In this document: one piece after another, positions 2,935 through 60,106 of the stretch | Layout of the letters: each line of letters opens with the position of its first letter | How positions within the stretch are numbered: the stretch's first letter is position 1 | The notes under the pieces: generated by a model | What the model was told of the DNA's origin: nothing | Seen by the model: only the letters and a program-made list of their open reading frames with translations | The model's database searches: none | Virus record (IMG/VR): IMGVR_UViG_3300037466_003849 | Location: 8,122-72,121 of that record | DNA from: a virus | Taxonomy: Duplodnaviria > Caudoviricetes | Length of the DNA stretch: 64,000 nt | Direction: 5' to 3' (one strand) | Position numbers and translations under genes: made by a program

Positions 2935-3289
2935 CCCCGCGCAGATCGTCGAGAAGGTCCGCGAGATCGTCGCGACCCGGCCCGACTTCGTCTACTCCTT
3001 CACTGATGCCGAGGGCAAGGCGAAGTGCTACTACTTCGTGGACGGCCAGCCCTCCTGCATCGTCGGCCACGCCCTCGCCGCATTCGGTGTTCCCGCAACG
3101 ATTTTCGAGCGCGACGGCGGCGAGTACTACGTCAACGGCCTCAGCATCGACCGCCCGCAGGTGCTCAAGATCCTGGGCTGGCCGATGAGCCGCCTCGTCG
3201 AGTGGCTGCGCACCGTCCAGGTTGGCCAGGACTCCGGTTACACCTGGCGCAAGTCGGTCGACAACGCCGACGAGTACTTCCCCCTCTGA
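2912..3289 (+). CDS. Hypothetical protein, paralog of 3347..3760
   Basis: Phage-like codon usage; motifs SCIVGHAL and WLRTVQVGQDSGYTW. Confidence 0.75.
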   Translation: MSPTTLPDPAQIVEKVREIVATRPDFVYSFTDAEGKAKCYYFVDGQPSCIVGHALAAFGVPATIFERDGGEYYVNGLSIDRPQVLKILGWPMSRLVEWLRTVQVGQDSGYTWRKSVDNADEYFPL

Positions 3290-6003: not shown

Positions 6004-6177
6004 ATGTACAGCGTTCGCATCGAAGTGAAGGCGTTCGGAGCTGATCTGGATGTACGGGTCGATGACAAGTTCGCGGCGTACGGCGAGGACGACGCCGATG
6101 TCATCGAGAGCCTGCTCTCCGATGCCTCCGCACGCGTCCGGCAGGCATACGGCATCCCGGTTCACCAGGAGAAATGA
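6004..6177 (+). CDS. Small hypothetical protein
   Basis: MYSVRIEVKAFGADLDV...; AAAGGGA RBS; ATGA overlap with the clamp gene. Confidence 0.55.
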   Translation: MYSVRIEVKAFGADLDVRVDDKFAAYGEDDADVIESLLSDASARVRQAYGIPVHQEK

Positions 6178-7294: not shown

Positions 7295-7456
7295 ATGCCA
7301 CTCATCGAAGGACGCGTCGCCGAGTGCACCGTCGGCCACGAGGGCCGCCTGGTCGTCGAGGCGACCATTACCGGCGGCGACGAGCTCGACTTCCGGCCCG
7401 GCCGCCCGGTCGTGGTCCACCTCGACAAGCGCGACGACAGCGGGATCGAGCGGTGA
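7295..7456 (+). CDS. Small hypothetical protein
   Basis: AGGAG RBS; MPLIEGRVAECTVG...; GTGA overlap with the next gene. Confidence 0.55.
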   Translation: MPLIEGRVAECTVGHEGRLVVEATITGGDELDFRPGRPVVVHLDKRDDSGIER

Positions 7457-8343
7457 CCGAGCACGACCCCATCCACCCGGACACCTCCGAGCCCACGCCG
7501 GTCGAGATCGTCGCCGCGTTGTCGAAGGACGACCGGACGCGCCGGGTGCTTCACCTGATCGACCAGGCATACGCCATCTACGACGAAGCGATCGAAACCC
7601 ACCTCGACGACAAGCGTCTGGCCGCGTCGGCCGTGCTGTTCTCCGGCGGCAACGACTCGACAGTCCTCGCGCACCTCATGGCACCGCGGGCCACGCACGC
7701 GATCCACTGCAACACCACGATCGGCATCGAGGCGACGCGTCAGTTCGTACGCGACACCTGCGTAGAGCTTGGCCTGCCGTTGCTCGAGGAAACTGCGCCG
7801 GTGTCGTATCGAGACCTGGTGCTGGAGCGAGGATTCCCCGGACCGCCGCACCACTGGAAGATGTACCAGCGTCTCAAGGAGCGCGGGCTACGGCAGGCCC
7901 GGCGCAAGCTGGTCGCCAACGGCCGCCGAGAGCGCGTCGTGTTCATCGCCGGGCGTCGGCGTCAGGAGTCGGACCGGCGCAAGGAGATTCCGCTGCACGA
8001 GCGGATTGACTCGGTCATCTGGGCGTCACCGCTGGCGATGTGGACGAAGCTCGACATGATGACCTACCGGACCATTCACCCGGATGTTCCACTGAACGAG
8101 GTATCGCAGCTACTGCACATGTCCGGCGAATGCCTCTGCGGCGCATTTGCGAAGCCGGGCGAGCTCGAGGAGATCCGGGCGTGGTTCCCGGAGGTCGCCG
8201 CCGAGATCGACGCCATCCAGGAGGAAGTCCGGCAGGCGGGCATCTCGGGGAGGCGGGCCTGCTGGGGCCACGGCGGCGGTAAGGCGAGCAAGCGCGTCGG
8301 CGCGCTGTGCACCTCCTGCGAGGTGGCCAGTGCCGCGACCTGA
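7453..8343 (+). CDS. PAPS-reductase-like PP-loop protein
   Basis: FSGGNDS PP-loop, HCNTTIG, GRRRQESDRR, SPLAMWT, SGECLCG and terminal CTSC. Confidence 0.85.
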   Translation: MTEHDPIHPDTSEPTPVEIVAALSKDDRTRRVLHLIDQAYAIYDEAIETHLDDKRLAASAVLFSGGNDSTVLAHLMAPRATHAIHCNTTIGIEATRQFVRDTCVELGLPLLEETAPVSYRDLVLERGFPGPPHHWKMYQRLKERGLRQARRKLVANGRRERVVFIAGRRRQESDRRKEIPLHERIDSVIWASPLAMWTKLDMMTYRTIHPDVPLNEVSQLLHMSGECLCGAFAKPGELEEIRAWFPEVAAEIDAIQEEVRQAGISGRRACWGHGGGKASKRVGALCTSCEVASAAT

Positions 8344-10740: not shown

Positions 10741-11100
10741 AAACAGACCAGGCGGTGCGGAGTGTGGACAAAATGTCCACACCGCGTCGAAAAAATTTTC
10801 GCGCCCTAAGACATTAAAGACGTTAAGAGAGTAAAGACGTTAAGTCGTTAATGTCTTTGAAGAGAGTGAAGTCTTTGAAGGCGTTGAAGACGTTACGAGT
10901 GTAATTCGAAACCGAAATCGAAGTCCAACACCTCTGAACATTCGGCGTGTCGACGTGGCGTCGAACACAAACAGACCGAGCGGTGCGGAAAGTGTGGACA
11001 CGGTGTGGACATCAATGTCCACGATGCCGATCCATCTTCACCGACGTTGATCTATTCACCGGGAATTCCGATGTCCCACGTTGTCCCACGAAGTCCATCC
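10741..11100. other. Putative replication origin (iterons plus DnaA-box-like palindromes)
   Basis: Directly after the primase gene. About 8 AAGACGTT-like repeats at 10808-10894; GTGTGGACA-AAA-TGTCCACAC at 10762-10782; GTGGACAT-CA-ATGTCCAC at 11005-11022. Confidence 0.65.
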
Positions 11101-11123
11101 ATCTAAACCGAGGTAAACCGATA

Positions 11124-11465
11124 ATGGCGAAGAAGGCCCCGGTGACACGGTCGGCCCCACGCCGTGGCACCTGCACCGTCTGCAAGGAGAAGATCGTCCT
11201 CTACCTGCGAGACGGTCTCGACATCGTTCTCGATGCCCAGCCGATCAACCTGCGAGGCGAGGCGGCGTCACTACTGGCAGGCCATCAGACCTGGCACTGG
11301 ATCGAGGGCAGGATGCATCGGCGATCGGAGCCGTATATCCGCCTGGAGCCACACCCGATGCTGGGCACGATTCATCGACTGCACCACTGCGGCGAGATCG
11401 TGGCCGACGAGCACAAGTTCGTGCCGAGAAAGCCGGATTACGACAGCGATATCCCACCCTTCTGA
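11124..11465 (+). CDS. Hypothetical protein with CxxC motif
   Basis: GAGGT RBS; CTVC...HHC; ends DIPPF. Confidence 0.65.
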   Translation: MAKKAPVTRSAPRRGTCTVCKEKIVLYLRDGLDIVLDAQPINLRGEAASLLAGHQTWHWIEGRMHRRSEPYIRLEPHPMLGTIHRLHHCGEIVADEHKFVPRKPDYDSDIPPF

Positions 11466-11589
11466 ATAGGGCTGGGGAAGTGCCCGCCCGCTGCCGCGTG
11501 CGGTCATTCCACCGGGATTGTCTAGTACGCATGACACCCCCGACCCGGTGAGAAAATTGAGAGGGGGAGAAATTCGAAAGGAATTCATT

Positions 11590-12081
11590 GTGGGCCACAC
11601 CTATGCCTACATCGACAAAAACGGAAATTATCGGTGGACGGAGGCGAGGCGAGTCGGAAACCGCATCGTCGGCCACGACGGCATCGCAGTCGAAATAGGG
11701 GCTGGCGTCGATCGCGACGAAATCGAGATGCGCCGGGGCACCGGCCGCTCCGCGACCAACTGGTTCTCCTTCACGATCCCCGCCGATCCCACCTCCGAGG
11801 GGCTGTATCACCCGGCCAACTGGGCCGCCTTCCTCGGTGCCGCGTTCCGCATCTACCGCCAGGAGGTCAACGACGACGCGGAGGCCACGGCCAAGGCCCG
11901 CAAGTCCGACGAGGAGGAGGCTGCCGCCCTGGCCGCCGCCCACGAGGCCCGGATCGCCTCCCTCGCCGCCGATCTGCGCGAGAGCACCGTGCCCTACACC
12001 GGCGCCCCATCCGCCGACGAGTACTACACGCACATGGCGCGCATCGCCGTCGCCCACCTCGATGCCGGAGTCGGCCGATGA
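11590..12081 (+). CDS. Hypothetical protein (paralog array member)
   Basis: GAAAGGA RBS upstream of the GTG at 11590; coiled-coil C-terminal half. Confidence 0.7.
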   Translation: MGHTYAYIDKNGNYRWTEARRVGNRIVGHDGIAVEIGAGVDRDEIEMRRGTGRSATNWFSFTIPADPTSEGLYHPANWAAFLGAAFRIYRQEVNDDAEATAKARKSDEEEAAALAAAHEARIASLAADLRESTVPYTGAPSADEYYTHMARIAVAHLDAGVGR

Positions 12082-12497
12082 GCCGCCTCGCCGACGAGTA
12101 CTGGGGCCTGGACGAGAACTGCATCGCCGTCTGCCACAGGCTCCACCGCAACGGCGACATGATCGTGGACGAGACCGGGCGCTTCATCGAGATCCCGCCG
12201 CCGGTCGAGGGGCAGGTCGACCAGGCCCTCCTCGACACGATCGACAAGCGCTCGAAGGCCCGGCTGCGCGAGGGCTACCGCAACTTCACCCTCGGCGCCT
12301 TCTACTCCGGCGCAGTCGAATTCGTGAAGGCCGAGGCCCGCGACCAGCTCCCCCCGGCTCGGCAGCCCGACGCCGACACCGAGCTCGCGAACGCCTTGCG
12401 CGCCAGCGTTCCCCGCCTCGGCGGCGTCACCGGCGATGACTACTACCTCACCCTCGCCCGCGCCGCCCGCGCTCACCTCGAAGGGAAAACCGCGTGA
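12078..12497 (+). CDS. Hypothetical protein (shares a C-terminal module with 11590..12081)
   Basis: ATGA overlap; DDYYLTLARAARAHLEG versus DEYYTHMARIAVAHLDA. Confidence 0.7.
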   Translation: MSRLADEYWGLDENCIAVCHRLHRNGDMIVDETGRFIEIPPPVEGQVDQALLDTIDKRSKARLREGYRNFTLGAFYSGAVEFVKAEARDQLPPARQPDADTELANALRASVPRLGGVTGDDYYLTLARAARAHLEGKTA

Positions 12498-14847: not shown

Positions 14848-15420
14848 ATGAAACTCGGAACCGTCGCTCTCGGGAGCGCGATCCTGTCCGCCGGTATTCT
14901 CCTGACCGCCGCGTGCAGCCAGAACAACACCGCGGCCAGCCACGACCAGGCGGTGCTCAACCAGGCCCTCGACGCCTTCCAGCGCACCCAGCCGATCCCG
15001 CAGGCGACCTGGTCGCAGATGCGCGAGTCGCTGATCCAGATCGAGAACGCCCGCATTCACGGCATCGCCACCACGACCTTCTTCTACAACATGGGGTCGA
15101 ACGTGCCGATCAAGTCGTGCGCCTCGACCGGTTTCCCGATCCCGGCCACCGCGCAGCTGACCAACCCGTCGCAGCTGTCCTGGCTGGTCGCGAACCAGAA
15201 CACCATCGACGGCGTCATCGGCCAGATGGAGCCCAACGGCACCTTCACCGGCGACTCGGCGGGCACCTACGTCACCTGCGCCGGGCCGAACGGCTCGACG
15301 TATGAGACCTACTGGGAAGGCCCGGTGGAGACCGAGGGCGGCCCCGCCCACTACGACCCCGACGCCCGCCAGATCGTCCTCGACGGCGCGCCGACCGTGA
15401 CCGCGAAGGGCGGAAAGTGA
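14848..15420 (+). CDS. Lipoprotein
   Basis: Signal peptide ending in a lipobox-like LTAAC-SQ. Confidence 0.75.
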   Translation: MKLGTVALGSAILSAGILLTAACSQNNTAASHDQAVLNQALDAFQRTQPIPQATWSQMRESLIQIENARIHGIATTTFFYNMGSNVPIKSCASTGFPIPATAQLTNPSQLSWLVANQNTIDGVIGQMEPNGTFTGDSAGTYVTCAGPNGSTYETYWEGPVETEGGPAHYDPDARQIVLDGAPTVTAKGGK

Positions 15421-16238
15421 TGACCGAGACCGCAACCACCGCAACCACCGCGGCGACCGCCACCGACGCCGTCATGGTCTCGGTGCCCGGCACCGACACC
15501 CCGCTGGTCGCCCAGCTGATCAACGGCGAGCCCTACGCCGCGCTGCGCCCGATGTGCGACGCGATCGGCCTGGACTACTCCAGTCAGTGGTCGAAGCTGA
15601 AGACCAAGTCGTGGGCGAACGTGGCGATCAGCCCGACGGTTGCCGCCGATGGCAAGGTCCGCGACATGGTCCTCGTCGACCGCCGCACGCTGACGATGTG
15701 GCTGGCGACGATCACCGAGACCCGGATCGCCCCGGATCTCCAGCCGACCATCCGCGCCTTCCAGGCCGAGGCCGCCGACGCCCTCGACGCCTACTTCCAC
15801 GAGGGCGGTGCGATCAACCCGAACGCCACCGACGACCAGCTCGACCGGCTGACCGAGCGTGCCCGCGCGCAGATGGAGCTCATCCAGTCGGCGAAGGGAA
15901 TCATCAACCCCGAGCACCTGGAGACGAGGGCTCGTCTGGTGCTGGCCCGCGGTCTCGGCGAGGTGCCCGAGATCGAACCGGAGGACATGCCGCTCTACAC
16001 CCAGACCTACCTGGAGGACCGCGGCGTCGACCGCGAGCGTATCCAGCGGATCGCGGGCGCGTTCGGCAAGAAGGTCAAGATGGCCTACCGGCTGAAGTAC
16101 GGCAAGGAGCCGGGCAAGTACCCGATCACCGCCCTCAACGGTCAGGTCCGCATGGCCTACGCCTACGTCGAGGCCGACCGGCCGCTGCTCGACGAGATCT
16201 ACCGGGAGTTCTACGCCGACGAGGCGGTGAAGTCGTGA
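15417..16238 (+). CDS. Antirepressor (P22 AR N-terminal domain)
   Basis: INGEPYAALRPMCDAIGLDYSSQWSKLK...LTMWLATI. Confidence 0.85.
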   Translation: MMTETATTATTAATATDAVMVSVPGTDTPLVAQLINGEPYAALRPMCDAIGLDYSSQWSKLKTKSWANVAISPTVAADGKVRDMVLVDRRTLTMWLATITETRIAPDLQPTIRAFQAEAADALDAYFHEGGAINPNATDDQLDRLTERARAQMELIQSAKGIINPEHLETRARLVLARGLGEVPEIEPEDMPLYTQTYLEDRGVDRERIQRIAGAFGKKVKMAYRLKYGKEPGKYPITALNGQVRMAYAYVEADRPLLDEIYREFYADEAVKS

Positions 16239-25481: not shown

Positions 25482-26029
25482 GCCTCCGGCGCGTACTGCT
25501 TGACGAGGTCCTGGATGAACTGCGGCGCCGCGGCGAGCCCTCCTGGCACGTCGATGGAGTGCCATTCTTCGGCGCCTAGGACCTGACTGACTGCGCCGTC
25601 CTTCTTGTAGATCGGGCCTTCGGCCGTGACGCGCCAGCACTCCCAGTCTTTGCCACGCTCCCTTCGATACTGGATGACGAGGCCGTTGGGCCGGTACTTC
25701 GCGCTGCCCGGCCGGGTGAAGTGCAGGCCCGTCCCGGCAGTGACATCCGGGGCGTCGTCGAGGTAGAGGACGACCTTGTGCTCGAATTCCTCGCCAGTAA
25801 CCTTCATAGCCGCCTCCTCCGTTACGGTCACGCTGTCCTGCTGGGCCAGCACGTGCTCGACTGGGTCGTGCGGGCCGACGTAGGCGAGCGTCTCACCCAG
25901 CGGGTAGTCACCGGCATGGTAGATCTGCCGCAGCTCGCCGCTGACGCTTTTGCCGTCGCCGTCCTTGAAGACGACCGTCTTCCCGATGTGACGGGCGCTG
26001 AGGTCGCCCGCGGTCAATGTCTCTGTCAT
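25478..26029 (-). CDS. Hypothetical protein, apparent fusion of two small genes
   Basis: Internal GAGGAGG...ATG at MKVTGEEF; the C-terminal half resembles 27601..27939. Confidence 0.7.
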   Translation of the reverse strand: MTETLTAGDLSARHIGKTVVFKDGDGKSVSGELRQIYHAGDYPLGETLAYVGPHDPVEHVLAQQDSVTVTEEAAMKVTGEEFEHKVVLYLDDAPDVTAGTGLHFTRPGSAKYRPNGLVIQYRRERGKDWECWRVTAEGPIYKKDGAVSQVLGAEEWHSIDVPGGLAAAPQFIQDLVKQYAPEA

Positions 26030-26110
26030 GTCGAACCCTTTGCTGTGGCCGATGTTTCCACCGGCCGGGCCGGGCTACCAGCGGGGTGCTGATAACCCGG
26101 CTTATCGGTG

Positions 26111-26419
26111 TCAGGGCTTGCGCGAGCCGGGGGTGGGGGAGTCGCCGTCGAGCCACTTCTTGGCGGCGTCGACGATGTCGTAGCCCATCTCCTCTGCCTC
26201 GCCGACAGCGAGGGTGCAGATCGGCCCGTACTCCTCGCCGCCGAAGGCGTAGGACAGCGTGGTCAGCATTCCGCGCTGCCCCGGCGCGCTGTGGTCACCG
26301 GCGAAGTCGGCGGTGAACCAATCCTCGTCCTTGACGAACAGCACTCGGGTGGCCGTCGATTCAGGGATGCTCCAGCCCTTCTCGATGGCGTAGGCGGTGA
26401 CGATGTCGCGGTCGGTCAC
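26111..26419 (-). CDS. Hypothetical protein
   Basis: GTGA overlap with the upstream gene. Confidence 0.7.
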   Translation of the reverse strand: MTDRDIVTAYAIEKGWSIPESTATRVLFVKDEDWFTADFAGDHSAPGQRGMLTTLSYAFGGEEYGPICTLAVGEAEEMGYDIVDAAKKWLDGDSPTPGSRKP

Positions 26420-27225
26420 TTCGGCGCCCTCTCGATCGCTTCCTTGACCACGGCGTCAACCGCGGCCGGGGTCATGTACAGCCTGGCCACCTTCTCCAGA
26501 GCCTTCAGCTCCGAGGCTGCGTGCGCCAGGTCGGCGATGGACGAGCCGTTGTACCGGCCGGAGGTCGCCGCACCGGTGTCGAGGTCGGCACGCGCGATGC
26601 CGTATCGGGTCGCCGTCGTGCGCAGGAGCTGCGTGATCTGGTCGAGCACCTTGTCGCCCGCCGACGGAGGCGGCACAGGCGCCGCCTGGGAGATCGGCTT
26701 TCCCTCGATCTCGGCTTCTGCCTTCGCCAGGTCGGCCTGGGCGCTGGCGAGGGCGTACTCCTCCTCAGCGAGCCGCTTGCGGAGGCGGTCGATGTTCTTC
26801 GTCGACTCGTTCACCCGCTTCTGTGCCTCCGCGCGCCGCCACTCCAGTTCGACCGAGGGGTCGATGTTGGCGCTGACCTTCGAGATCCAGTCGACGACAT
26901 GGGCCGCCCAGTCGGCCTTCTTCGGCAGGGGGCTGGAGTCGCTCCAGCCGCGCAGCTGGAACTCGTTGTCCGAGAGAACCCACACAGTCTTGGCGTGCTC
27001 GCTGGCGTAGGCGTAGTTGAGCTTCCCTGACCGGGTGACCATGAACTCCAACCGCGCGTGCTGCTGCGGCAAAGAGATGTCGTTGTGGTAGGTCCCGCGT
27101 CCGTTCACGACGGGGTTGCCGGACCACAGCCCCTTGGCTGCGCCGAGGATCGCCATCGCGACCTCGGAATGCTGGTCGGACTTGGGGTTGCTGGCCCAGC
27201 GCAGCATCTCGTCCAGATTAGCCAT
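26416..27225 (-). CDS. Hypothetical protein with central coiled coil
   Basis: GAGGTG RBS; codon bias. Confidence 0.75.
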   Translation of the reverse strand: MANLDEMLRWASNPKSDQHSEVAMAILGAAKGLWSGNPVVNGRGTYHNDISLPQQHARLEFMVTRSGKLNYAYASEHAKTVWVLSDNEFQLRGWSDSSPLPKKADWAAHVVDWISKVSANIDPSVELEWRRAEAQKRVNESTKNIDRLRKRLAEEEYALASAQADLAKAEAEIEGKPISQAAPVPPPSAGDKVLDQITQLLRTTATRYGIARADLDTGAATSGRYNGSSIADLAHAASELKALEKVARLYMTPAAVDAVVKEAIERAPK

Positions 27226-49236: not shown

Positions 49237-52200
49237 GTGTCCGGAAATGGCGTGTTTTTCGACGTAATCCCCAAGCTCGAGATGAAGATCTTCGAAGCGC
49301 AGATGGGATCGGCCACTCGACGGGCTGAAACTGCGGCCAACGAGATGGTCCGCGCCATTTCCGGGCATGACTACTTCGCCGCGCCGACGACGCAGCTCGA
49401 CCGCTACGTCGCCCGCATGGAAACCCAGATGCGCTCGGCCAACTCGATCATGGATCGGACCGAGGAGCGCCAGATCCAGGCGGCCGAGCGCGTCGAGGCG
49501 GCCGAGAAGCGCAAGAACGCCGCTATCAAGAACAGCGAGGAAGTCCTCGCCAAGACTCGCGACGAGAACTCTGCCCGCTACCTGCGCGCCCTGGCGACGC
49601 AGACCAGGGCAGAGAACGAGCTCGCCGCCGCGACGCGCGAGCACAGCGCCGCCTCCGCGGCTTTCGTGACGGCCCAGCGCGGCCACGAGGAGGCAACCCG
49701 TCGCCAGGAGGAGGCCACCGTCGCCGCGGCCGGTGCGATGGGACGCTTCGGCACCGCCGCCGCCAACACCACCATGGCCGTCGGCGTCGGCCTCGCCGGG
49801 GCGTTCGCCGTCGGCGCCAGCCGGGCCGCGGACCTGGAGAAGGGCCTGAACCTGCTCGTCACCGGCGCCGGTGAGAGCAGCAAGAACCTCGACGGCCTGC
49901 GCAAGGGTGTCCTCGATCTCCAGGCGCAGTGGGGCACCTCGGCCAACGAGCAGTCCAAGGCGTTGCTGCTGATCGAGCGCGCGGGATACCACGGCGCCGA
50001 TGCCCTCAAGGTCCTCACCGCGGGCGTCCAGGCCGCCAAGGCCGAAGGCTCCGACCTGTCCACGGTCGTCGACCAGCTGACGACCACGATGCACGACTTC
50101 GCCGGATCTCGGGTCGGCAACTTCGCCATCTCGCTCGACAACGTCAACGGTGTCATGTCGGTCGGCGTCGAGACCGCGCGCCTGTCGAAGACCACGCTGG
50201 AGGAGTACGCCCGCGCGATCGGCACCGTCGAGGAGACGGCCAAGAACGCGGGCATGAACATTTCTGGTCTCAACGCCGCCTTCGCGACGATGACCCAGCA
50301 CGGCATCTCGGCGCAGAACGCGAGCCAGATGCTCCAGCACGGCATCATGACGCTCCAGTCGCCGCAGGGGCCGCAGCAGGCGGTGCTGAATCAGTTCGGC
50401 ATTTCAACTCGCCAGGTCCAGCAATGGCTCGCCGACCCCGATGTGCAGCTCGGCGGCGCGATCGAAAATATCAACAAGGCGATCGAGAAGAAGACCGACA
50501 AGAAGACCGGAATCGTCCACATCGACCCGAATATGGTGTCGATCGACGCAAAGGCCGCCCTTGCCGCTCAAGTGCAGGCAATGGACCCGCTCCAGCGCGC
50601 CGTGGTGGAGAGATTCCAGGGCAAGGGCGAAGTCAACGGCGAGTCCTTCAACAAGGTCCTCAATAGCCTCCAGGAAGGCGAGCGCAAAAAGCTCATCACG
50701 TGGCGATCGACCTACGACAACCTCACCGGATTCAACAAAATGCTCGCCAAGGGGCAGAACCCGGATATGTCGGTCGAGCAGGTCATGAAAATGATCTACG
50801 GCGACCAGGTCACCACCAAAGACGCCATGAACCTGCTCGACGAGGACCCGCAGGTCGGCTACCGCCAGACCAAGGAGAAGCTCGACCTCGCCGCCAGGGG
50901 CATCGACCCGAACAAGCACGTCGAAGGCGCCGACCAGTCGCAGCAGTCTCTACGCGCGCAGCTGGCGGACCTCCGCGGCGCCCTGAACACCAACCTCACC
51001 GACCTCGGCGAGGCGACGCAGGGGCCGCTGACGAAGTTCGTCCACATGCTGGTCGACGCCGCCCAGCTGCTGCACGGCCACAGCGACGCGCTCCAGTGGG
51101 CCGGTCTCGGCACCATGGGCCTTGCCGCCGGGCTGGGCGTCATCAAGGGCGGCAACGCCCTCGGCAACCTGTTCGGCTACGAGAAGAACGCCTTCGGCCG
51201 CAAGGTCGGCCAGGGCATCGGCGCCACCGTCAGGGGCACCGGCCGCGGCATCGCCGCGACGACCCGCGGCATCGGCACCGGCACGAACGCCGCCATCGCC
51301 GCAGCGCGCAACGCGCGCAGCTCCGACACCGCCCTCTACCTCCAGGGCGCTGCTCTCAACGGCATGGACGCCGCCCGCAACGCTCGCGACGCTGCGCGCA
51401 CCCGGCGAGAGCACGCCGCATTCCTGGAGGAGGAGGAACGGCCCAGCCGGTTCGCCCGCGCTGGCCGTTGGGGAGCCCGCGCCGGTGTCGTCGCCGCGCC
51501 GCTGGCCCTCATGGCGTTGACCGCGGGCGCCGCGCACGCCGACGACGGCTCCGGCGGTGGTGGCGGCATGACCGACATGGCGATGATGGCCATGACCGCG
51601 CTACCCGCGCTGCCGATGCTCGGCGGTGCCGCGAAGGGTGTCGGCAAGGGCGCCTCGGCGCTCGGGGAAGGCGCCAAGGCGGGCCTGGAGGCCATCTCCA
51701 GCGCAGGCAAGGGCGCGATGACCACCCTGACCGGCGTTACGAAGTCAGTCACCGAGCTGCCGAAGCTGTTCAAGGGCGTGACATCGGCGGTGAAGGACTG
51801 GACCGCGGTCCAGTGGCTGCTCGACGCCGCGATGGACGCCAACCCGATCGGCATTGCCGTCGTCGCAATCGCCGCGCTGACCGCAGGCATCATCTACGCC
51901 TACAACCACAGCGAGAAATTCCGCGAAATCGTGAATGGCGCCCTTTCGGCGGTCGGAAACGCATTCAAGTCGACCTACGACGGATTCGTAAAGCCATTCT
52001 TCGACGATTTTAAGCGGATTTTCTCCGATGTGTGGGATTTCGCGAAGAATACCTTCGGATTCTGGAAGGATTTGCTGACCGGCGATTTCTCCGGCGCCTG
52101 GGACCACGCGAAGACGCTGGTCGGCGACGCAGTCGACGGAGTGAAGGCTTCCCTCGGAGTTCTCGGAACGGCGATCCACGATGTCTATTCGGTCACCCTC

Positions 52201-55047
52201 GAGCCGGTGGTGAATTCCATCGGAAAGGCCCTCGGCAAAGTCCGCGATTTCTTCGGAAATACGGTCTCGTGGGTCAAGACCGAGTGGGGAAAGCTGGAGT
52301 CGATCGCCTCGAAGCCGATTAAGTGGATCGTCGAGCACGTCTACGACGGCGGCATCCGGCCCGTCTGGAACAAGATCGACAGCGTCTTCGGTGGCCACCA
52401 CCAGCTCGCCTCGGTCAGCTTCAAGGCGGCCGGTGGCGGCGTCTGGACCGGGCCGGGCACGATCCCCGGCTACGCGCCAGGCATCGACAACGTCAACGCG
52501 ATCCTGTCGCCTGGCGAGTCCGTGCTCACGCCCGAGGCGTCCAAGGAGCTCGGCTACGGCACAATCGTGGAGCTCAATCGGAAGTCGGGGCGCCGGTCGG
52601 CCAACGATCAGATGGGCCAGCCCATTCGCGCGGCCGGTGGTTTCCTCGGGGATCTCGGCGGCTGGGTCGGTTCGGCCTGGGACGGCGTGAAGGATGCCGC
52701 AGGCTTCACCACGAAGCTGCTCGGCAACCCGGTCAACGCGGTCAAGTCGCTGTTCTCGAAGGTGATCGGCGAGACCAACGCCACTCCCGGCGATTCGTCG
52801 AAGTGGCGCACGATGCTCACCGACATCCCGAAGCACTTCGTGTCGCACGCGATCGAGACGGCCAAGGGCTGGATCGGCATGGGGCGCAAGGCCGTTGGCG
52901 GTGCCATGGCCAGCGTGCCGTGGGTCGGCAACGGCGATGTCGACGCCTGGATCGCGCAGGCCATGAGCATCACCGGCGTCGATGCGCACTGGGCTCCGCG
53001 GCTTCGCACCATCATCGGTCGCGAGTCGCGCGGCAACCCGAACGCCATCAACAACTGGGACAGCAACGCCGCGGCGGGAGATCCCTCGCGCGGCCTGATG
53101 CAGACCATCGGGTCGACGTTCCGGGCGTACCGCGATCCGCGATTGTCCGACAACATTTATGACCCGGTGTCGAACATCGTCGCAGGTATCCGGTACATCC
53201 AGGCCCGCTACGGCGACATCGACAACGTCCAGCAGGCGCACCCGGAATTGCCTCCCAAGGGCTACGCCGGTGGTGGTATCGAAAGCCCGGATCACCACCT
53301 GAGCGAGAAGCAGAAGGATGCGCAGTCCGGCCGCACGACGGCCTCGCCGAAGCTTCCCGGCCAGGTCGCTGGCGGCGACCGTACCGCGATCGAGCGCGCC
53401 TGGGCCTACATCAAGTCGGTGGCGGGCACGCCCTACGAACTCGGGCAGCTCGACTGCTCAATGTTCATGTCCGGCATCTACCAGGCGCTCCTCGGCCGCA
53501 ACACCGCGGTCCGCGCGTTCAACACGATGTCGGACTTCGCGGCGCTGGGCTTCCGGCGCGGCCTGGGCGGCATCTTCAACATCGGCGTCCTGGCCAAGCC
53601 GGGTGCCGCGGGGCACATGGCGGGCACCTTTGACGGCCAGAACGTCGAATCCGGTGGGGCGCACAACAATGTGGCCTACGGACCCGAGGCCGCTGGCGCC
53701 GCTGACGCGCAGTTCCCGGACAAGTGGTACCTGCCCGGCAGCCTGTTCTCGCCGCCGTACAAGGGCGAGGGCGCCAAGCCCACCGAGGGGCAGAGCCAGG
53801 CGAACAAGCTGCACACCAAGGCCCACAAGCTGCGCAGCTCGATCACCAAACTCCAGGGCGAGGAGAAGCGCGCCAACGACGCCGCCAAGACCCACGACGA
53901 CGCCGCCGCCAAGGCAGACGCCGACGCGGCGAAGTACGACGCCAAGGCCGCGACCCAGTTCCTGGAGGCCGACAAGAAGAAGGCGCAGGAGCAGGCACAG
54001 AAGGCGCGTGAGCGTGCCCAGCGAGCCCGTGCCGCGGCCCAGAAGGACCGCGACCGGGCGGGCATCTATCACCAGCGCGCCCAGGACGCCCAGGTGCAGG
54101 CCGACCAGGCCGACCAGGACGCCGGTGTCGCTTGGAAGTCGCCGAAGCAGCAGGGCAAGAAGGATGGAGAGAACTCCGATCCGAACCATTTGATCACGCC
54201 GAAGGAGGCGGCCGAGAAGGCCGCTGGCATCGCCGTGGACGGATTGTTCGAAACGTTCGGACTCCAGGACACGCTGTTCGCCGACCCGAACAAGAGCTAC
54301 CTGCTCCGTGTCGGTAACGCCGTCCTCAACCCCTTCGCGAAGGTGCCGCAGGATGACCAGAAGGATCAGGAGGACGCCGAGGGGAGCGAATCCAGCGACC
54401 CGACCGACCTCAGCGACACCGGACTCGACGACGACTCCTCGTCGGACTCGGGTGGTCTCGACGATTCGTCGGGTCTCGACGATATGGCCGGTGCCGACGA
54501 TTCATTGAATCCCGACACCGACACCAGCGACGAAGACAGCGACAGTCCGCCAGATCTACCCGACCCCGGTCCGGGTGATGTGCCGAACCAGGACGACAAC
54601 GATGGCGGCTGGGGTAAGCCCGCGGACAAGGACAAGAACAATCCGAGTCTGGGAGCCTTCCCGAAGCCAGACTGGCTGCCTGGGCCAGATGGCAGCACAA
54701 CGCCGCTCGCACCTGGCACTCCGCCCGCCAACGGCGGCTTGGCGCAGACGCTGATGGACCTCATCGGCGTCAAACCGCAGCTGCACGACAACGGCGGCCT
54801 GCTCCAGCCGGGTCTCACGCTCGTCAACAACGCCACCGGCGTGCCGGAGGCAGTGCTGGCGCCGCGCGAGAAGGCCAACCTCGAAACGATCGCCCGCGGC
54901 GGCGGCCACCCCTTCCTGGACGGCCACGCACCGCGGTCCTGGGTGCATATCGAACACCTGCACCAGGGCAGTAGCGAGGACGGTCACGACATCGGCCGCC
55001 GGATCGCCCGTGAGATGAACGCATATGCAGGAGGAGGTGCCAGGTGA
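49237..55047 (+). CDS. Tape measure protein with lytic transglycosylase and NlpC/P60-like domains
   Basis: 1936 aa; TP901-like core; IIGRESRGN...GLMQ SLT motif; GTPY...DCS...GHM peptidase-like motif. Confidence 0.95.
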   Translation: MSGNGVFFDVIPKLEMKIFEAQMGSATRRAETAANEMVRAISGHDYFAAPTTQLDRYVARMETQMRSANSIMDRTEERQIQAAERVEAAEKRKNAAIKNSEEVLAKTRDENSARYLRALATQTRAENELAAATREHSAASAAFVTAQRGHEEATRRQEEATVAAAGAMGRFGTAAANTTMAVGVGLAGAFAVGASRAADLEKGLNLLVTGAGESSKNLDGLRKGVLDLQAQWGTSANEQSKALLLIERAGYHGADALKVLTAGVQAAKAEGSDLSTVVDQLTTTMHDFAGSRVGNFAISLDNVNGVMSVGVETARLSKTTLEEYARAIGTVEETAKNAGMNISGLNAAFATMTQHGISAQNASQMLQHGIMTLQSPQGPQQAVLNQFGISTRQVQQWLADPDVQLGGAIENINKAIEKKTDKKTGIVHIDPNMVSIDAKAALAAQVQAMDPLQRAVVERFQGKGEVNGESFNKVLNSLQEGERKKLITWRSTYDNLTGFNKMLAKGQNPDMSVEQVMKMIYGDQVTTKDAMNLLDEDPQVGYRQTKEKLDLAARGIDPNKHVEGADQSQQSLRAQLADLRGALNTNLTDLGEATQGPLTKFVHMLVDAAQLLHGHSDALQWAGLGTMGLAAGLGVIKGGNALGNLFGYEKNAFGRKVGQGIGATVRGTGRGIAATTRGIGTGTNAAIAAARNARSSDTALYLQGAALNGMDAARNARDAARTRREHAAFLEEEERPSRFARAGRWGARAGVVAAPLALMALTAGAAHADDGSGGGGGMTDMAMMAMTALPALPMLGGAAKGVGKGASALGEGAKAGLEAISSAGKGAMTTLTGVTKSVTELPKLFKGVTSAVKDWTAVQWLLDAAMDANPIGIAVVAIAALTAGIIYAYNHSEKFREIVNGALSAVGNAFKSTYDGFVKPFFDDFKRIFSDVWDFAKNTFGFWKDLLTGDFSGAWDHAKTLVGDAVDGVKASLGVLGTAIHDVYSVTLEPVVNSIGKALGKVRDFFGNTVSWVKTEWGKLESIASKPIKWIVEHVYDGGIRPVWNKIDSVFGGHHQLASVSFKAAGGGVWTGPGTIPGYAPGIDNVNAILSPGESVLTPEASKELGYGTIVELNRKSGRRSANDQMGQPIRAAGGFLGDLGGWVGSAWDGVKDAAGFTTKLLGNPVNAVKSLFSKVIGETNATPGDSSKWRTMLTDIPKHFVSHAIETAKGWIGMGRKAVGGAMASVPWVGNGDVDAWIAQAMSITGVDAHWAPRLRTIIGRESRGNPNAINNWDSNAAAGDPSRGLMQTIGSTFRAYRDPRLSDNIYDPVSNIVAGIRYIQARYGDIDNVQQAHPELPPKGYAGGGIESPDHHLSEKQKDAQSGRTTASPKLPGQVAGGDRTAIERAWAYIKSVAGTPYELGQLDCSMFMSGIYQALLGRNTAVRAFNTMSDFAALGFRRGLGGIFNIGVLAKPGAAGHMAGTFDGQNVESGGAHNNVAYGPEAAGAADAQFPDKWYLPGSLFSPPYKGEGAKPTEGQSQANKLHTKAHKLRSSITKLQGEEKRANDAAKTHDDAAAKADADAAKYDAKAATQFLEADKKKAQEQAQKARERAQRARAAAQKDRDRAGIYHQRAQDAQVQADQADQDAGVAWKSPKQQGKKDGENSDPNHLITPKEAAEKAAGIAVDGLFETFGLQDTLFADPNKSYLLRVGNAVLNPFAKVPQDDQKDQEDAEGSESSDPTDLSDTGLDDDSSSDSGGLDDSSGLDDMAGADDSLNPDTDTSDEDSDSPPDLPDPGPGDVPNQDDNDGGWGKPADKDKNNPSLGAFPKPDWLPGPDGSTTPLAPGTPPANGGLAQTLMDLIGVKPQLHDNGGLLQPGLTLVNNATGVPEAVLAPREKANLETIARGGGHPFLDGHAPRSWVHIEHLHQGSSEDGHDIGRRIAREMNAYAGGGAR

Positions 55048-55970
55048 CCGCCTATACAGTGCCGAGCCCGCCGAACCTATGGCAGACCAATTCCCTTCTG
55101 GCCGACAACGAGTCGATCGTCGTCTGGATCGGTGCCGACGGTTCGCGGTGGCCACTGTCGGGCGGCCTGGCGACCATGCCCGGCGTGCAGCCCGGCGTCG
55201 TTCTTCAGAGCGTCGCCGGGCTGCTGGGCAGCTTCAAACACTTGGATCAGCAAGGCGCCCGGCAGGACGGTGTCACCTACGAGGACACCGTCTGGGACCC
55301 CACCGAGGTCGACCTTGGCATCAATATCTCCGGCCGGACGCCGCGCGAGTTCCGCCTCACGATGCACAACTGGATCGACTCCTGGGACACCCGCACCACC
55401 GGGCGCCTGTCGTGGTTCACGCGCGAGTTCGGCGAGTGGTGGATCGACCTGCGCGCCCAGAAGCTGCCCGCCTCGGTGTTGAAGCTGGCGCCCGCTGGGG
55501 TGACCACCTGGGACACGAATTGGGTTGCGCGCGCCGACTTCCCGTTCTGGAGCTCGACCGATTCGGTGTCCCAGCTGGTCGCGATCAACCCCATCACGCT
55601 CGTCGACCCGGCGGGGATCAACCCCGCGGGCTGGCTCCCGTTGTGGAACAGGGGCGATCAGGACGGCTGGCCGACGCACATCCTCCAAGGGCCTGGCACC
55701 TTCACGATGGGCGACGGCGTCAGCTCGAATCAGATCGTCTTCGGGCCGGTGCCCGCGGGTGTGCAGGTGCAGATCGTCACCCTGCCGCGTATCCGCACCA
55801 TCCAGGAAATCAACACCGGCGCAAACCTTTACGACCTGCTCCAAGGGCGCTTCACCGTCCCGATCCCGCGGGGCCAGGCGGTGCACATCGCGTGCTCGGT
55901 CACCGGCGCCCAGGCCGGTCTGACAAAGATCATTTCGACGCTGACTCCGTACCGTCGCTACCCGGAGTGA
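55044..55970 (+). CDS. Distal tail protein (Dit-like minor tail)
   Basis: Follows the tape measure gene; GVVLQ...GLLG; WNRGDQDGWP. Confidence 0.85.
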   Translation: MTAYTVPSPPNLWQTNSLLADNESIVVWIGADGSRWPLSGGLATMPGVQPGVVLQSVAGLLGSFKHLDQQGARQDGVTYEDTVWDPTEVDLGINISGRTPREFRLTMHNWIDSWDTRTTGRLSWFTREFGEWWIDLRAQKLPASVLKLAPAGVTTWDTNWVARADFPFWSSTDSVSQLVAINPITLVDPAGINPAGWLPLWNRGDQDGWPTHILQGPGTFTMGDGVSSNQIVFGPVPAGVQVQIVTLPRIRTIQEINTGANLYDLLQGRFTVPIPRGQAVHIACSVTGAQAGLTKIISTLTPYRRYPE

Positions 55971-56556
55971 CCGTCGGCGTGGTACGGTCCCGGATACAAG
56001 TCGGCCCCGGTCGGTGTTGGTAGCACCTTCCAGGGCCTGGGCGGAATCTGGGCCTTAGAACCTAGCAGACTCGCGCCGTAGGGAGCACCCTACCAACGAT
56101 TCTGGCAGTTTTGCCACCTTCCCCCACCTTGGTCGCTGCGCCCGTAGGCACCAACACGGGTGACACGCCTTGCCCGCGTGGTCGTCGCCCGTCAGATGGG
56201 CCACTGCACCAATTCCGATGACACAGAGTCGCGCGTAAAGGCGGACTCGGAGTGCTCCGGCGTGGCTGCCGGACGGACCATGGGCGGCACCCGGATTCCC
56301 CGAGCTCTGCGCCCATGGCCGGACTCTGTGCAGTATCCCAGTCCCGGCAGGCCGAGTAATCCCCGTGCCTGCGTGCATACCAAGCGACCGTAGCGACCAA
56401 CCGACCGGCGTGACACGCGTCAAGGGTGCATCCGTACTTCGCGGTACCGGGGTGCCCCTGCGCTTCCCTTCGCTTCCCGCTCTCCCAGCGTAAGCCCTTC
56501 CAGCCGGTCACGGCTGCGAATAGCGCTGCGCTACAACTTAATTCGCAGGGGGTCAG
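55971..56556. ncRNA. Candidate large structured non-coding RNA / regulatory element
   Basis: 586-bp gap in an otherwise overlapping operon, with no credible ORF and many nested inverted repeats (see findings). Confidence 0.5.
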
Positions 56557-58185
56557 TTGCTAGACCTCGATACCCTCGACGCCCGCAAGGTTCGCCGCGC
56601 GGCCGAGCTCGCTCTCAAGCAGAAGGCCGACACCGAGGCCATCGGCAAGCCGAAGTTCCTGATCGAGATCTTCGACAACGTCTACGGCAAACAGGGCGAG
56701 ATCACCGACTACATCAGCACGACCGTCACCTGGAAGAAGAACGCGGCCTCGGGCGGCACGATCGTCCTCAAGGGCTCCGACGCCTGGGGCGAGTACGCCC
56801 GGCGGTGCCGGACGACCGTCGTGCCGATCATCATCACCGTCAACGGGTACAGGTGGACCGGCCGCGTCGACACCGCCTCCTGGGACCTGGTCGACGGCGT
56901 CGCGACCTACACACTGCAATTGATCAGCGATTGGCAGTGGTTCCACCGGGTGCTCGTATGGCCCAATTTTGCGTTCCCGATCGAATTCCAGTGGCCGAAA
57001 GAGGCCATATACATCGGTCCGGCCTGCACTGTCCTCGCCACGATGACATTCGAGCAAGCAATTCGATTGCAATTCGGCCTCTGGGAAATCGTCAACAATA
57101 TCCTCAATCCGGCCGCCTGGTTCGCCTCGGCAATGATGAAAGAGGGCCTGCTCACGCCGCTCGCGGTGGTGCCGGTCAATCCATTGACCGACACCTCGAA
57201 ATGGGTGGCGATATCGGGCCGGATGGATTCGATCGCGACGCTGGCCGAGCAGGTGTGCAAGGACAACGGCATCGACATGTCGGCGACCGCATGGTTGCCC
57301 GGCGACGAGCAGCCCGCGCCCGATTGGTACACCCTCACCGACGCGTGCATCGTCATCCGCTTCGTCGACAAATCCGGCGTCACCGGCCCGACGGGCACGA
57401 TTATCGACGGCCTGATAAAGGACGCGGTCGATATCGCGGACTCGGTACTCGGCGAGGTCCTGGACCCGCTCGCGGACTCCGAATACCGGCCCGAGGGCAT
57501 CAACCTCGCCCCGGCGCTCGGCGTCAACTGGCAGCGCCCGTGGACGGTCCTGCTCCCGGATGTGCCCAGGTCAGGACTCAAAGAGTGCCACATCACCGAG
57601 CATCACCCGCTGGCCTACACGGTCATCGGCGGCGGCCGATCGCCGCAGTGGGTCAACCAGCTCATCGACGTGATTATCGAGACGTTGATGTCGCAGTTGC
57701 TCATGGCACTCGGCGCCTCCGGTATCGCTCCGACACTTCTCGACGGATTCCTGGACAACGTCGTGCTCGCATTCCAGGAAGTCGAGAACGCGGCCCGGCG
57801 ATACAAACTCGGCCCATTCGGATTCCCGGAATATTTCACCGGCACCGGTTCTACGGCGTATACCCTGGACGAATTTTTCGCTCTCGAAATAGCGATGTGG
57901 GAAACCCGTGGTTATTCGAGCTGCCAGGCGGTGATGTACGACTCGGTGCCATACAGCCTGGGACGGGACTATCAGCACGGCGACCTCATGTCGTGGATTC
58001 ACGAGGGAATGCTCTACACGGACTACATCACCGAAATCACCGCCACCGACGATCGCAACAAGCGCGTCGAGGTGCTGACGAAAATCGGTGACGGCAGCGC
58101 GCAGGAAAGCCCGTGGGCGAAACTCCAGCGCCGCCTCCAGGCCGCCGAGAACGCCATGCAGATCGCCCTTCTCAGCTCGAACTAA
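56557..58185 (+). CDS. Minor tail protein (Tal/baseplate hub-like)
   Basis: AGGGGG RBS plus TTG; YRWTGRV; GGRSPQWVNQLI; synteny. Confidence 0.85.
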   Translation: MLDLDTLDARKVRRAAELALKQKADTEAIGKPKFLIEIFDNVYGKQGEITDYISTTVTWKKNAASGGTIVLKGSDAWGEYARRCRTTVVPIIITVNGYRWTGRVDTASWDLVDGVATYTLQLISDWQWFHRVLVWPNFAFPIEFQWPKEAIYIGPACTVLATMTFEQAIRLQFGLWEIVNNILNPAAWFASAMMKEGLLTPLAVVPVNPLTDTSKWVAISGRMDSIATLAEQVCKDNGIDMSATAWLPGDEQPAPDWYTLTDACIVIRFVDKSGVTGPTGTIIDGLIKDAVDIADSVLGEVLDPLADSEYRPEGINLAPALGVNWQRPWTVLLPDVPRSGLKECHITEHHPLAYTVIGGGRSPQWVNQLIDVIIETLMSQLLMALGASGIAPTLLDGFLDNVVLAFQEVENAARRYKLGPFGFPEYFTGTGSTAYTLDEFFALEIAMWETRGYSSCQAVMYDSVPYSLGRDYQHGDLMSWIHEGMLYTDYITEITATDDRNKRVEVLTKIGDGSAQESPWAKLQRRLQAAENAMQIALLSSN

Positions 58186-58199
58186 GACGGCGGTAATTC

Positions 58200-59048
58200 A
58201 TGCCTTACACAGTCAATTCCGACGGCAGTATCACCTGGCAGGGCACCGTCACCTTCTCGGCGTCCTCCGACCCCTTCGCCACCGGCGTCGCCACCCTGAC
58301 GCTGACGCCCTCCGGCGGCGTGAGCAACCTGCCCGCGCTGGTCAACGGCGACCCCGGCCTGCCGCCGACGTTCCGCAACGTGACCGTTCACCAAGTCGCC
58401 TACGGCACAACGCCTCCCGCGTCGACATCGACTCTGGTGTCGCCGGGCGGGCCGGGCGTCGCCTCGGTGTACGACCTGGATCTCTACGTCAACTCCGGCC
58501 AGCAGGGCGCCGCGGGCACCAACGCCGCGGTGCTGGCGGCCTCCGACGTGGTCGTCACCGGCATCGCCGACGGCTGGACGCTGGTCTACAACGCCAGCAC
58601 GTCGAAACTCGTTGCCCAGCAGCCCAAGCGCGTCATCGGCCCGTTCATCTCGAGCTCGATCACGGCCTACAACGGCAACGCCGCGAGCACCACCGTCGCC
58701 TCGATCGGCGTCCCGGCCCAGCCATGGGCCTGGCGCCCGCGCGTGCACGCGCACTTCTACGTGACCGGCACCGCCAACACCCACATCGACGCCCTGGTCC
58801 GGCTCAACGATCCCAGCGCGGGCGACATCGTCGGCATGGCGCTGGGGCTCACCGGCGCCGTCAGCGACCGCCTGATCGTCGGCCAGCACTTCGGCGCGGC
58901 CGTCTCGGGCACCAGCACCTACGGCCAGGTCGCCGCGGGCGCCAGCGCGACGCTGTACCTGCTCGCCAGCCAGACCGCCTCCACCTCCGACAACTGGCAG
59001 ACGCTGGCCACCAACGGCCAGTTCGTGGTCGAAGTGATACCGAGCTGA
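58200..59048 (+). CDS. Minor tail protein
   Basis: PALVNGDPG; PWAWRPRVHA; synteny. Confidence 0.8.
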   Translation: MPYTVNSDGSITWQGTVTFSASSDPFATGVATLTLTPSGGVSNLPALVNGDPGLPPTFRNVTVHQVAYGTTPPASTSTLVSPGGPGVASVYDLDLYVNSGQQGAAGTNAAVLAASDVVVTGIADGWTLVYNASTSKLVAQQPKRVIGPFISSSITAYNGNAASTTVASIGVPAQPWAWRPRVHAHFYVTGTANTHIDALVRLNDPSAGDIVGMALGLTGAVSDRLIVGQHFGAAVSGTSTYGQVAAGASATLYLLASQTASTSDNWQTLATNGQFVVEVIPS

Positions 59049-60106
59049 TGGCGCTGTCACCGCTGTTCATCGACGCCTTCGGCGAGGCGGCGATGGACCT
59101 CATCGGCGCGCAGGTATGCGACTTCATCACCGGCGCCACCGGCGGCTGGATCAACCTGTCCACCTGGTCGGCGCAGTTGCGCAGCGACGCCACCACCGCG
59201 TTCAACAACGCCGCGGCGGCCCAGGCCAACGTCTCCACGATCGCCACCGGCGTCACCGGCAACATCACCGGCTCCACGGCATCGTCGAACGCCAACGATG
59301 TCGGCACTTCGGTGGCGGTGCTCAACAACACGGTGCAGGCCAGCAGCCAGCCGCCGCAGACCGTCATCGTCACCACGACGCAGAATGTGAACATCCCGAC
59401 CGGCTGCCGGTCGGTGGTCATGAATATTTTCGGCGCTGGCGGCGGCGGCGCGCGCGGCAACTCGGTCTCCGGCTCCGGCCTGGCCGGGGGCGGCGGCGGG
59501 GTCGGCGGCTGGCAGAAGAACATCAGCCTGCCCGCGTACGCCCTGACCTCCACCCTGCACTGCGTCGTCGGCATCGCGGGCCAGGGCGGCACCCTCGACA
59601 ACCACGCCGGATCGGCCGGTGGCGACTCCTACGTCGCCTCCAGCGACGGCTCGACCGTCTACTGCCGCGCCACCGGCGGCGGCGGCGGCCTGCCCCAGAG
59701 CTCCGGCAGTTCCAACCCGGACTTCGGCCCGCTCACCGGCGCGGCCGGATCGGGCAACGGCGTCTCCGACCTGCCCGGCAAGAGTGCTGGCCATGGCGGC
59801 ATCTACAACCTCGCCGCGGCCACAGCCGGTGCTGGCGGCCTCAACGTCAACGGCGGCGCCGCGGGCGCCCAGGGCGGCAATCCTGGCCTCGACGGCTCCG
59901 ACGACACCTCCACCTTGATCCCCGGCAACGGCGGCTCCGGTGGTGGCGGCGGCTCCGGCGGCGGCTCCGGTGACGGCGGCCATGGCGGCAAGGGCGGCCA
60001 TCCCGGCGGCGCTGGCGGCGGCGGGGGAGCGTTCTACGCCTTCGGCTCCAACGGCAACGGGGCCGATGCGGCCGACGGAGAGATCTGGCTGACTTTCGTT
60101 TTCTGA
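59048..60106 (+). CDS. Minor tail protein with glycine-rich C-terminal domain
   Basis: FGAGGGG...GGGGG; ends GADAADGEIWLTFVF. Confidence 0.8.
   Translation: MALSPLFIDAFGEAAMDLIGAQVCDFITGATGGWINLSTWSAQLRSDATTAFNNAAAAQANVSTIATGVTGNITGSTASSNANDVGTSVAVLNNTVQASSQPPQTVIVTTTQNVNIPTGCRSVVMNIFGAGGGGARGNSVSGSGLAGGGGGVGGWQKNISLPAYALTSTLHCVVGIAGQGGTLDNHAGSAGGDSYVASSDGSTVYCRATGGGGGLPQSSGSSNPDFGPLTGAAGSGNGVSDLPGKSAGHGGIYNLAAATAGAGGLNVNGGAAGAQGGNPGLDGSDDTSTLIPGNGGSGGGGGSGGGSGDGGHGGKGGHPGGAGGGGGAFYAFGSNGNGADAADGEIWLTFVF

Follow-up and report, generated by a model that had tools for sequence, protein, structure and literature searches.

Within the 586-nt non-coding stretch that separates a Dit-like from a Tal-like tail gene (positions 55971-56556 of the window, the whole 64-kb stretch of phage DNA analysed here) lies a structured RNA element of ~517 nt, which sequence profiles show to be homologous to the non-coding RNA (ncRNA) and replication origin (ori) of non-RepA parABS Cluster A mycobacteriophages. 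Arguing from these homologues, we put the probability that the window element is likewise an RNA-based origin module at roughly 55%. The RNA family itself is known; what is new here is the structural subtype, the genomic position and orientation, and the different lysogeny strategy of the carrier.

The upstream flank of the gap is an intact gene for a Dit-like minor tail protein of 308 aa (55044-55970, plus strand; phrog_106, E 8.6e-61), and the downstream flank an intact gene for a Tal-like minor tail protein of 542 aa (56557-58185, plus strand; phrog_110, E 8.9e-176; Pfam Sipho_Gp37, E 8.4e-38). Both genes align end to end with their homologues, which upholds the description of a 586-bp gap between intact genes in the first-pass annotation of this DNA. 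The Dit-like protein has the same length as Braxoaddie gp44 and shares 78% amino acid identity with its homologue on metagenome contig L160 over residues 1-308. A search of viral contigs with the Dit protein found no relative. The Tal-like protein shares 86% amino acid identity with its homologue on metagenome contig L166 over residues 1 to 542, and because this identity runs from residue 1 it supports the TTG start at 56557. The Dit and Tal genes of related phages lie much closer together, with 10 nt between them in Rhodococcus phage Braxoaddie and 40 nt in Gordonia phage Daredevil. An ORF of 672 aa at 58088-60106 of the window carries a glycine-rich domain (PF21722) at its C-terminus. In its listed form this ORF shares ~100 nt with the end of the Tal-like gene, so that its start is probably further downstream.

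The ORFs that can be drawn in the gap, including two of 122 and 149 aa on the minus strand, had been judged not to look like proteins, and we reached the same view. Their G+C content is flat across the three codon positions (GC1/GC2/GC3 0.63-0.73), compared with GC3 of 0.84-0.88 and GC2 of 0.44-0.51 in the adjacent genes. The 149-aa ORF gave zero matches in PHROGs, and the 122-aa ORF gave no significant family match, only a sub-threshold one in PHROGs (E 0.0079). Indels of the RNA element between relatives have lengths that are not multiples of three. An MPME-type mobile element or decayed gene, considered for the two minus-strand ORFs, was rejected since they lack family matches and codon bias.

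The non-RepA parABS ori regions of Cluster A phages, which include RedRock, LadyBird, Alma, Gladiator and Et2Brutus, are ~600 bp long and are transcribed as an ncRNA (Wetzel et al., mBio 2020, PMC7157519). Strand-specific RNA-seq shows that this ncRNA runs opposite to parA and is expressed in lysogens (PMC7157519). The ori is necessary and sufficient for plasmid-like prophage replication, with ~600 bp being enough and the ORFs dispensable, and deletion of the ori from Alma or LadyBird destabilises lysogens (PMC7157519). The 2020 paper defined the oris only as segments of ~600 bp with 41-71% identity and no shared ORF; the priming role of the RNA was inferred there, not demonstrated, and extrachromosomal actinobacteriophages were almost exclusively members of Cluster A (PMC7157519). 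It contains no description of the secondary structure or wider distribution of the family (PMC7157519), and the titles and abstracts of works citing it suggest that neither is described in those works.

Comparison with phage genomes by blastn identified a core of 40-70 nt (56157-56224) with matches in Cluster A mycobacteriophages, in gaps without annotation that lie upstream of parA; these matches sit within the experimentally defined oris of LadyBird and RedRock. The same core matches a 1.2-kb gap in Gordonia phage Daredevil. The search for homologues in other genomic contexts that had been suggested for this element thus led to the Cluster A gaps and to Daredevil. An nhmmer profile was then made from 11 Cluster A ori regions, oriented as the RNA and with the window left out. 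It matched the gap in two collinear plus-strand blocks, 56134-56235 (E 3.5e-12) and 56350-56478 (E 1.8e-7), with no match elsewhere in the 64 kb. The structured core that we delimit in LadyBird spans 25901-26308, where the published ori deletion is 25900-26299, and that in Alma spans 26468-26850, where the published deletion is 26463-26959. The term 'uncharacterised', which had been applied to the gap element, is therefore too strong, given its homology to the Cluster A ncRNA/ori region (PMC7157519).

The window element shares with the Cluster A oris a three-hairpin 5' domain with an invariant GGTCGTC, the closing helix of the central domain, a AGUAAUCCC-loop hairpin, CGACC repeats, a terminal GC hairpin and a pyrimidine-rich tail. 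Both are non-coding and of similar length (~520 nt and ~600 nt), and by homology the transcript sense of the window element is that of the Cluster A RNA. There are also clear differences. The window phage does not belong to Cluster A, has a tyrosine integrase and lacks parABS; its element lies between two tail genes in the sense orientation, whereas the Cluster A RNA is antisense and lies between the tail genes and parA. The parS repeats of the Cluster A oris are absent from the window element, and the central domains are of different subtypes, with GTAAAGGC..GACTCGG in the window element and ATCACGGCCCATCCA..TAGAAGGACAGCCCGAC in the Cluster A oris. Upstream of the core, the RNA-sense 5' ends of the Cluster A oris (L013-L022) have in common the 8-bp parS-L repeats, a conserved CGACACGCCGAGA..GTTAC..GTAGAAA, a candidate RNA promoter, and a GAAGCCCCCC...GGGGGG hairpin. 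The leaders of the window and Nocardia elements share only CCCCGGTC and TCTAGCAG-like pieces with this upstream region.

We set the limits of the element at 55979 and 56495 (plus strand), where similarity to its closest relatives starts and ends in alignments with Nocardia higoensis, Rhodococcus sp. and the metagenome contigs L160/L166; both ori-profile blocks fall between them. The 5' leader (55979-56128) is 77% identical to that of L160 and contains local hairpins at 56078-56093 (GTAGGG/CCCTAC) and 56103-56116 (TGGCA/TGCCA). The stem of the former becomes GTAGGC/GCCTAC in Nocardia and that of the latter TGGCT/AGCCA in L160 and soil variants, both compensatory changes. The universal 5' domain (56129-56212) consists of three hairpins, H1 (56139-45/56156-62), H2 (56164-68/56176-80) and H3 (56187-90/56198-201), with the invariant GGTCGTC at 56180-86 and a GTCAGA loop in H3. 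The central domain (56222-56330), which includes inverted repeats I8 and I9, is closed by the helix CACAGAGTC/GACTCTGTG, in which GAGTC/GACTC is replaced by GAGCC/GGCTC in L160, again a compensatory change. It carries the subtype-2 motif GTAAAGGCGGACTCGG at 56235-56250 and a variable hairpin (56278-86/56310-18) that is swapped for other sequence or deleted in relatives.

The 3' domain (56331-56408) has a hairpin at ~56347-56373 with the conserved loop CGAGTAATCCCCG and covarying stems, followed by three CGACC repeats at 56385-56406. RNAalifold predicts that these repeats pair with the GGTCG that is invariant in the 5' domain, a pairing that is beyond the reach of a covariation test because both sides barely vary. 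The last segment (56409-56495) comprises a GC-rich hairpin at ~56441-56463 and then a pyrimidine-rich tail, and the position of both is conserved in Cluster A, in Daredevil and in subtype 2. The plus strand had been described as having pyrimidine-rich tracts, and indeed 36 of the 46 positions of the tail at 56455-56500 are C or T; conserved C/U-rich tracts such as CACCTTCC occur, this one in two copies. The remainder of the gap (56496-56556) is a non-conserved spacer on the same strand, with hairpins at 56501-16 and 56514-21/56541-48 (inverted repeat I15); it also contains the Tal-like gene's ribosome-binding site. L160/L166 and Nocardia cease to resemble the window near 56495, and L166 has ~250 unrelated nt in the spacer.

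The four longer inverted repeats listed in the first-pass annotation (56007-15/56400-08, 56129-40/56389-400, 56222-30/56322-30 and 56278-86/56310-18) were located as claimed, while the short TGCACC/GGTGCA pair (56205-10/56425-30) falls below the length cut-off of the repeat tool and was seen by reading the sequence. As RNA pairings they did not all stand. Compensatory changes support 56222-30/56322-30 and 56278-86/56310-18, together with the local hairpins at 56078-93 and 56103-16. Reading of the alignment showed that the long-range pairings 56007-15/56400-08, 56129-40/56389-400 and 56205-10/56425-30 are not kept in Nocardia and Rhodococcus.

In the alignment of the 5' domain, standard base pairs occupy 95.7% of cells across 29 distinct sequences, compared with 30-40% for slid controls. 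Compensatory changes are found at 14 of its 16 pairs, and none of 500 shuffles was equally good. A covariance model (R2) built without the window and without its two closest genomic relatives gave a full-length match in the window, on the plus strand only, with a score of 68 bits (E 3.5e-19). Compensatory changes are present at 23 of 59 pairs in a 12-sequence alignment and, when 11 sequences of the subtype to which the window belongs are aligned, at 19 of 34 pairs; covariation of the central closing helix (56222-30/56322-30) is seen in both subtypes. Of the family fold, the window retains H1-H3, this closing helix and the AGUAAU hairpin. Comparison of folding energy with shuffled sequences, a check that had been proposed, was less informative; the minimum free energy z-score is -1.95 for the plus strand, with an equally good fold in 4 of 100 shuffled sequences, and -3.11 for the minus strand. 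The thermodynamic evidence for the fold is weak on its own, and it is covariation that supports it instead. Since the fold covaries, the RNA, and not just the DNA, is argued to be the active part. The covarying fold, together with the 10-40 nt found at this site in relatives, bears out the proposal that a large structured non-coding RNA element is inserted in the tail operon.

Searches of Rfam 15 gave no match at E values up to 10 on either strand of window positions 55500-57000, and none at E values up to 1 for the LadyBird, Daredevil, Nocardia and Rhodococcus loci; a tRNA in L156 was detected as positive control. This agrees with the earlier observation that the hallmarks of ROOL, GOLLD and introns are absent. 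The suggestion of a ribozyme, self-splicing intron or decayed protein-coding gene gains something from the size and dense structure of the element, which would suit a ribozyme, and from the 122- and 149-aa minus-strand ORFs. The blank Rfam result and the separate, complete flanking genes speak against an intron or ribozyme, just as the even codon-position G+C, the missing family matches and the indels not in threes speak against a decayed gene, and we find any of these hardly credible.

Three lines of evidence agree in showing that the functional strand is plus, the same sense as the tail genes: the sense of the homologous Cluster A transcript, the plus-strand-only model matches, and the G-U pairs. 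In the 5' domain, pair 23-64 is G-U in 19 of the 29 sequences and would be an A-C mismatch on the opposite strand, and pair 25-62 is U-G in 6 sequences and would likewise be a mismatch. The first-pass annotation had hinted at an antisense RNA. A functional minus-strand transcript, antisense to the tail operon, would have the better folding z-score and would place purine-rich tracts in single strands, but it is at odds with all three lines, in particular with the Cluster A RNA-seq strand, which corresponds to the window plus strand, and we consider it very improbable. We infer that a discrete RNA is transcribed in the window phage. The scan of the gap found no sigma-70-type promoter, which does not argue that one is absent, since this consensus describes mycobacterial promoters poorly. 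One root-metagenome RNA library contains contigs of a close relative over 55992-56322, which are strandless and may reflect DNA carry-over. The window sequence itself is present in two DNA runs from soil or rhizosphere.

Metagenome contigs L160 and L166, which derive from one relative phage, have an identical Dit-RNA-Tal layout. Their Tal-like gene has 80.6% nucleotide identity with that of the window, compared with 96.9% for the 5' domain and 95.0% for the 3' domain (taken as 56331-56495) of L160; sequence identity thus shows the RNA element to be more strongly conserved than the adjacent gene. Differences from L160/L166 are concentrated in two places, the leader and the variable hairpin, and include compensatory changes. 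A further variant, spanning the end of the Dit gene and the RNA, is present in a soil DNA run. As the RNA domains are better conserved than the Tal gene and the site is kept, the insert appears to be old in this lineage and under purifying selection.

From the sequence matches, the RNA family extends, in full or partial copies, beyond Cluster A and beyond plasmid-prophages. Its members have the universal three-hairpin 5' domain and one of two central-domain subtypes, subtype 2 being found in the window, L046, L067, L085, the Nocardia copy and the Rhodococcus copy. Over 346 nt the Daredevil copy shares 73.6% identity with the LadyBird ori, and it forms an indel of ~430 nt that is missing from phage Mollymur. 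In the prophage-derived viral contigs L046 and L112 the RNA lies upstream of WhiB, HNH and terminase genes on the same strand, and at the edge of the integrated prophage in L170 the order is host genes, repressor, RNA, WhiB and HNH. Further copies are present in genome contigs of Nocardia higoensis and Rhodococcus. In the sequenced stretches of these contigs no phage structural genes were recognised near the RNA, which fits a self-contained function. The module behaves as a portable cassette, in that phages without relation to one another carry it as an indel, each at its own site.

Several of these loci have features of their own. In Daredevil (L002) the RNA insert is immediately flanked by a 16-nt direct repeat, TGTTGCGTGTCTCGTG, at 2440-2460 and 2885-2905. 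A third copy of TGTTGCGTGTCTCGTG lies at ~3420-3440 of L002, upstream of gp11, and this copy is also present in Mollymur. The repeat resembles a repeated phage promoter/operator; it might drive the RNA, or the insertion might have come about through it. Where L002 ~2990-3080 is compared with L156:923-998, Mollymur has a tRNA-Asn (ARAGORN; Rfam 67 bits), and the Daredevil counterpart, called by neither ARAGORN nor Rfam, is probably a degenerate tRNA. Contig L134 of Rhodococcus sp. JCM 9791 (13,327 bp, 59% G+C) encodes a large serine recombinase (398-2071), an ApeA-type defence protein (8994-10331) and a DUF2637-HTH protein (10965-11774), with the RNA (11776-12082) immediately after the last of these genes on the same strand. 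It is conceivable that L134 is a small integrative element, or a satellite, dependent on the RNA module.

A scan of viral contigs with 17-mer patterns returned 110 loci, mostly by chance, and only those confirmed by nhmmer were kept; with one specific pattern, all 18 metagenome contigs picked (L157-L174) proved to be members. Many subtype-2 metagenome members are on contigs of ~50-52% G+C, compared with 66% in the window, and the flanking ORFs on these low-G+C contigs had no PHROG or Pfam match. Covariance model R1 was run on 151 genomes from the order of a Mycobacterium carrier. Its weak matches (18 genomes, 23-33 bits) were rejected as false positives, except for the known carrier, as they lacked the invariant motif or a longer nhmmer match; with this model the family was not found in the 150 further genomes of that order. 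Among PLSDB plasmids there was no real match for the window element or the LadyBird core, only one chance match of 31 nt.

The source record of the window is 72,121 bp long with 66% G+C and is rated complete by CheckV, the window corresponding to bases 8122-72121. The genome is that of a temperate actinobacteriophage of the siphovirus type. A tyrosine integrase (phrog_1, E 2.3e-24) is encoded beside HTH regulators at the left end of the window, and the phage also encodes a primase-polymerase, a DnaN clamp, RusA and an antirepressor. No ParA was found in it with tblastn or PF13614. The late operon runs rightward, with a 1936-aa tape measure gene (49237-55047) followed by the Dit-like and then the Tal-like gene. 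Because this phage integrates, lacks partition genes and has its own primase-polymerase, it has no need of plasmid-type maintenance, nor of the module for that purpose. Genes of the early region code for the primase-polymerase, of 758 aa (8464-10740), a sliding clamp resembling DnaN (6174-7286), a SpoU-type methyltransferase (2184-2699), a protein with a PAPS-reductase domain (7324-8343) and an Ant-like antirepressor (15417-16238). ARAGORN found no tRNA or tmRNA in the window, and no terminal overlap indicative of circularity was found in the window genome or in the 13-kb Rhodococcus contig.

We propose that the plus-strand module of ~517 nt acts as a protein-independent, RNA-based origin of replication. 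The folded transcript, or transcription through the module, would start DNA synthesis by host enzymes. The module would be a portable cassette that has come to lie between the tail genes of a temperate, integrase-carrying phage, where its transcript could start at its own promoter, although none was found, or arise from late-operon transcription that reads through it. Origin activity, if present, might serve replication after infection or induction. We infer origin activity in the window phage from the Cluster A homologues, and several findings count against it: the integrase, the missing ParA, the phage's own primase-polymerase and DnaN clamp, the sense orientation in the late operon, a central subtype that differs from that of the tested Cluster A oris, and the negative promoter and PLSDB searches. 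A broader proposal is that a widespread class of RNAs of ~350-520 nt in actinobacterial mobile elements are protein-free replicon cassettes (a 'ribo-origin') that travel among phages, integrated prophages and genomic islands, have arbitrary insertion sites, tail operons included, and confer autonomous replication on the DNA that carries them. This generalisation is tentative, and we think it somewhat more likely to fail than to hold.

The same RNA family could instead act on late gene expression in the window phage, in Daredevil and in the prophages with WhiB, HNH and terminase genes. It might do so as a cis-acting leader, as a processing, stability or antitermination element, or through anti-Shine-Dalgarno-like pyrimidine tracts that modulate translation. 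Outside Cluster A the module is in sense with late genes, between Dit and Tal in the window and L160/L166; in L046, L112, L170 and Daredevil it precedes WhiB, HNH and terminase. The conserved C/U-rich tracts such as CACCTTCC would suit such a role. It is this sense orientation in late operons that keeps a late-expression role in consideration. In Cluster A, however, lysogens express the RNA, it runs antisense to the late genes, and the region it comes from suffices for plasmid replication; no late operon was recognised around the Nocardia and Rhodococcus copies, and there is no evident terminator for the RNA to act on. We regard this role as unlikely. Less likely again is a selfish or hitch-hiking RNA-origin cassette, captured by illegitimate recombination, kept neutrally or through its own propagation, and with no role in the phage life cycle. 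Its sporadic, indel-like distribution across unrelated phages and genome contigs, at differing sites, and the 16-nt direct repeat around the Daredevil insert are what such a cassette would leave. Against this, the 5' and 3' domains are 95-97% identical between the window and its relative while Tal is 80.6% identical at the nucleotide level, and the site is kept. This conservation argues for purifying selection, though selection could favour the element itself.

As an RNA-based origin, the module would have counterparts among known replicons. ColE1-type plasmid origins are primed by RNA II, a structured transcript of ~500 nt whose fold matters, and ColE1-type replication uses no plasmid-encoded initiator protein. 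The working principle proposed here is alike, although sequence and structure are unrelated and the hosts are actinobacteria. No counterpart of RNA I was identified for the window element in the sigma-70 promoter scan of the gap. A persistent hybrid of the ColE1 kind is not obviously favoured, since the 3' tract is pyrimidine-rich, not G-rich. The R-loop origins ori(uvsY) and ori(34) of phage T4 and the primary origin of T7 are transcript-dependent and need no initiator protein, and such transcription-primed origins can lie within or beside expressed genes. They have no large conserved RNA fold, whereas in the window element the fold is the conserved feature. The element resembles ROOL, GOLLD, HEARO, group I/II introns and tmRNA in size class, dense structure and association with phages, but its motifs differ from theirs, and the window and the four homologous loci have no Rfam match.

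These results show that the Cluster A segments encode one conserved, covarying fold, which provides helices and invariant loops to mutate. The family now includes an integrase-carrying phage, a 90-kb Gordonia phage, integrated prophages and bacterial genome contigs. As cultivable carriers exist, namely Daredevil in Gordonia terrae and the Cluster A phages in M. smegmatis, function is directly testable. If the proposed origin function is false, a conserved large phage RNA still needs explanation; if it is true, the family would supply actinobacterial genetics with compact replicons and add a new case of replication initiation driven by RNA.
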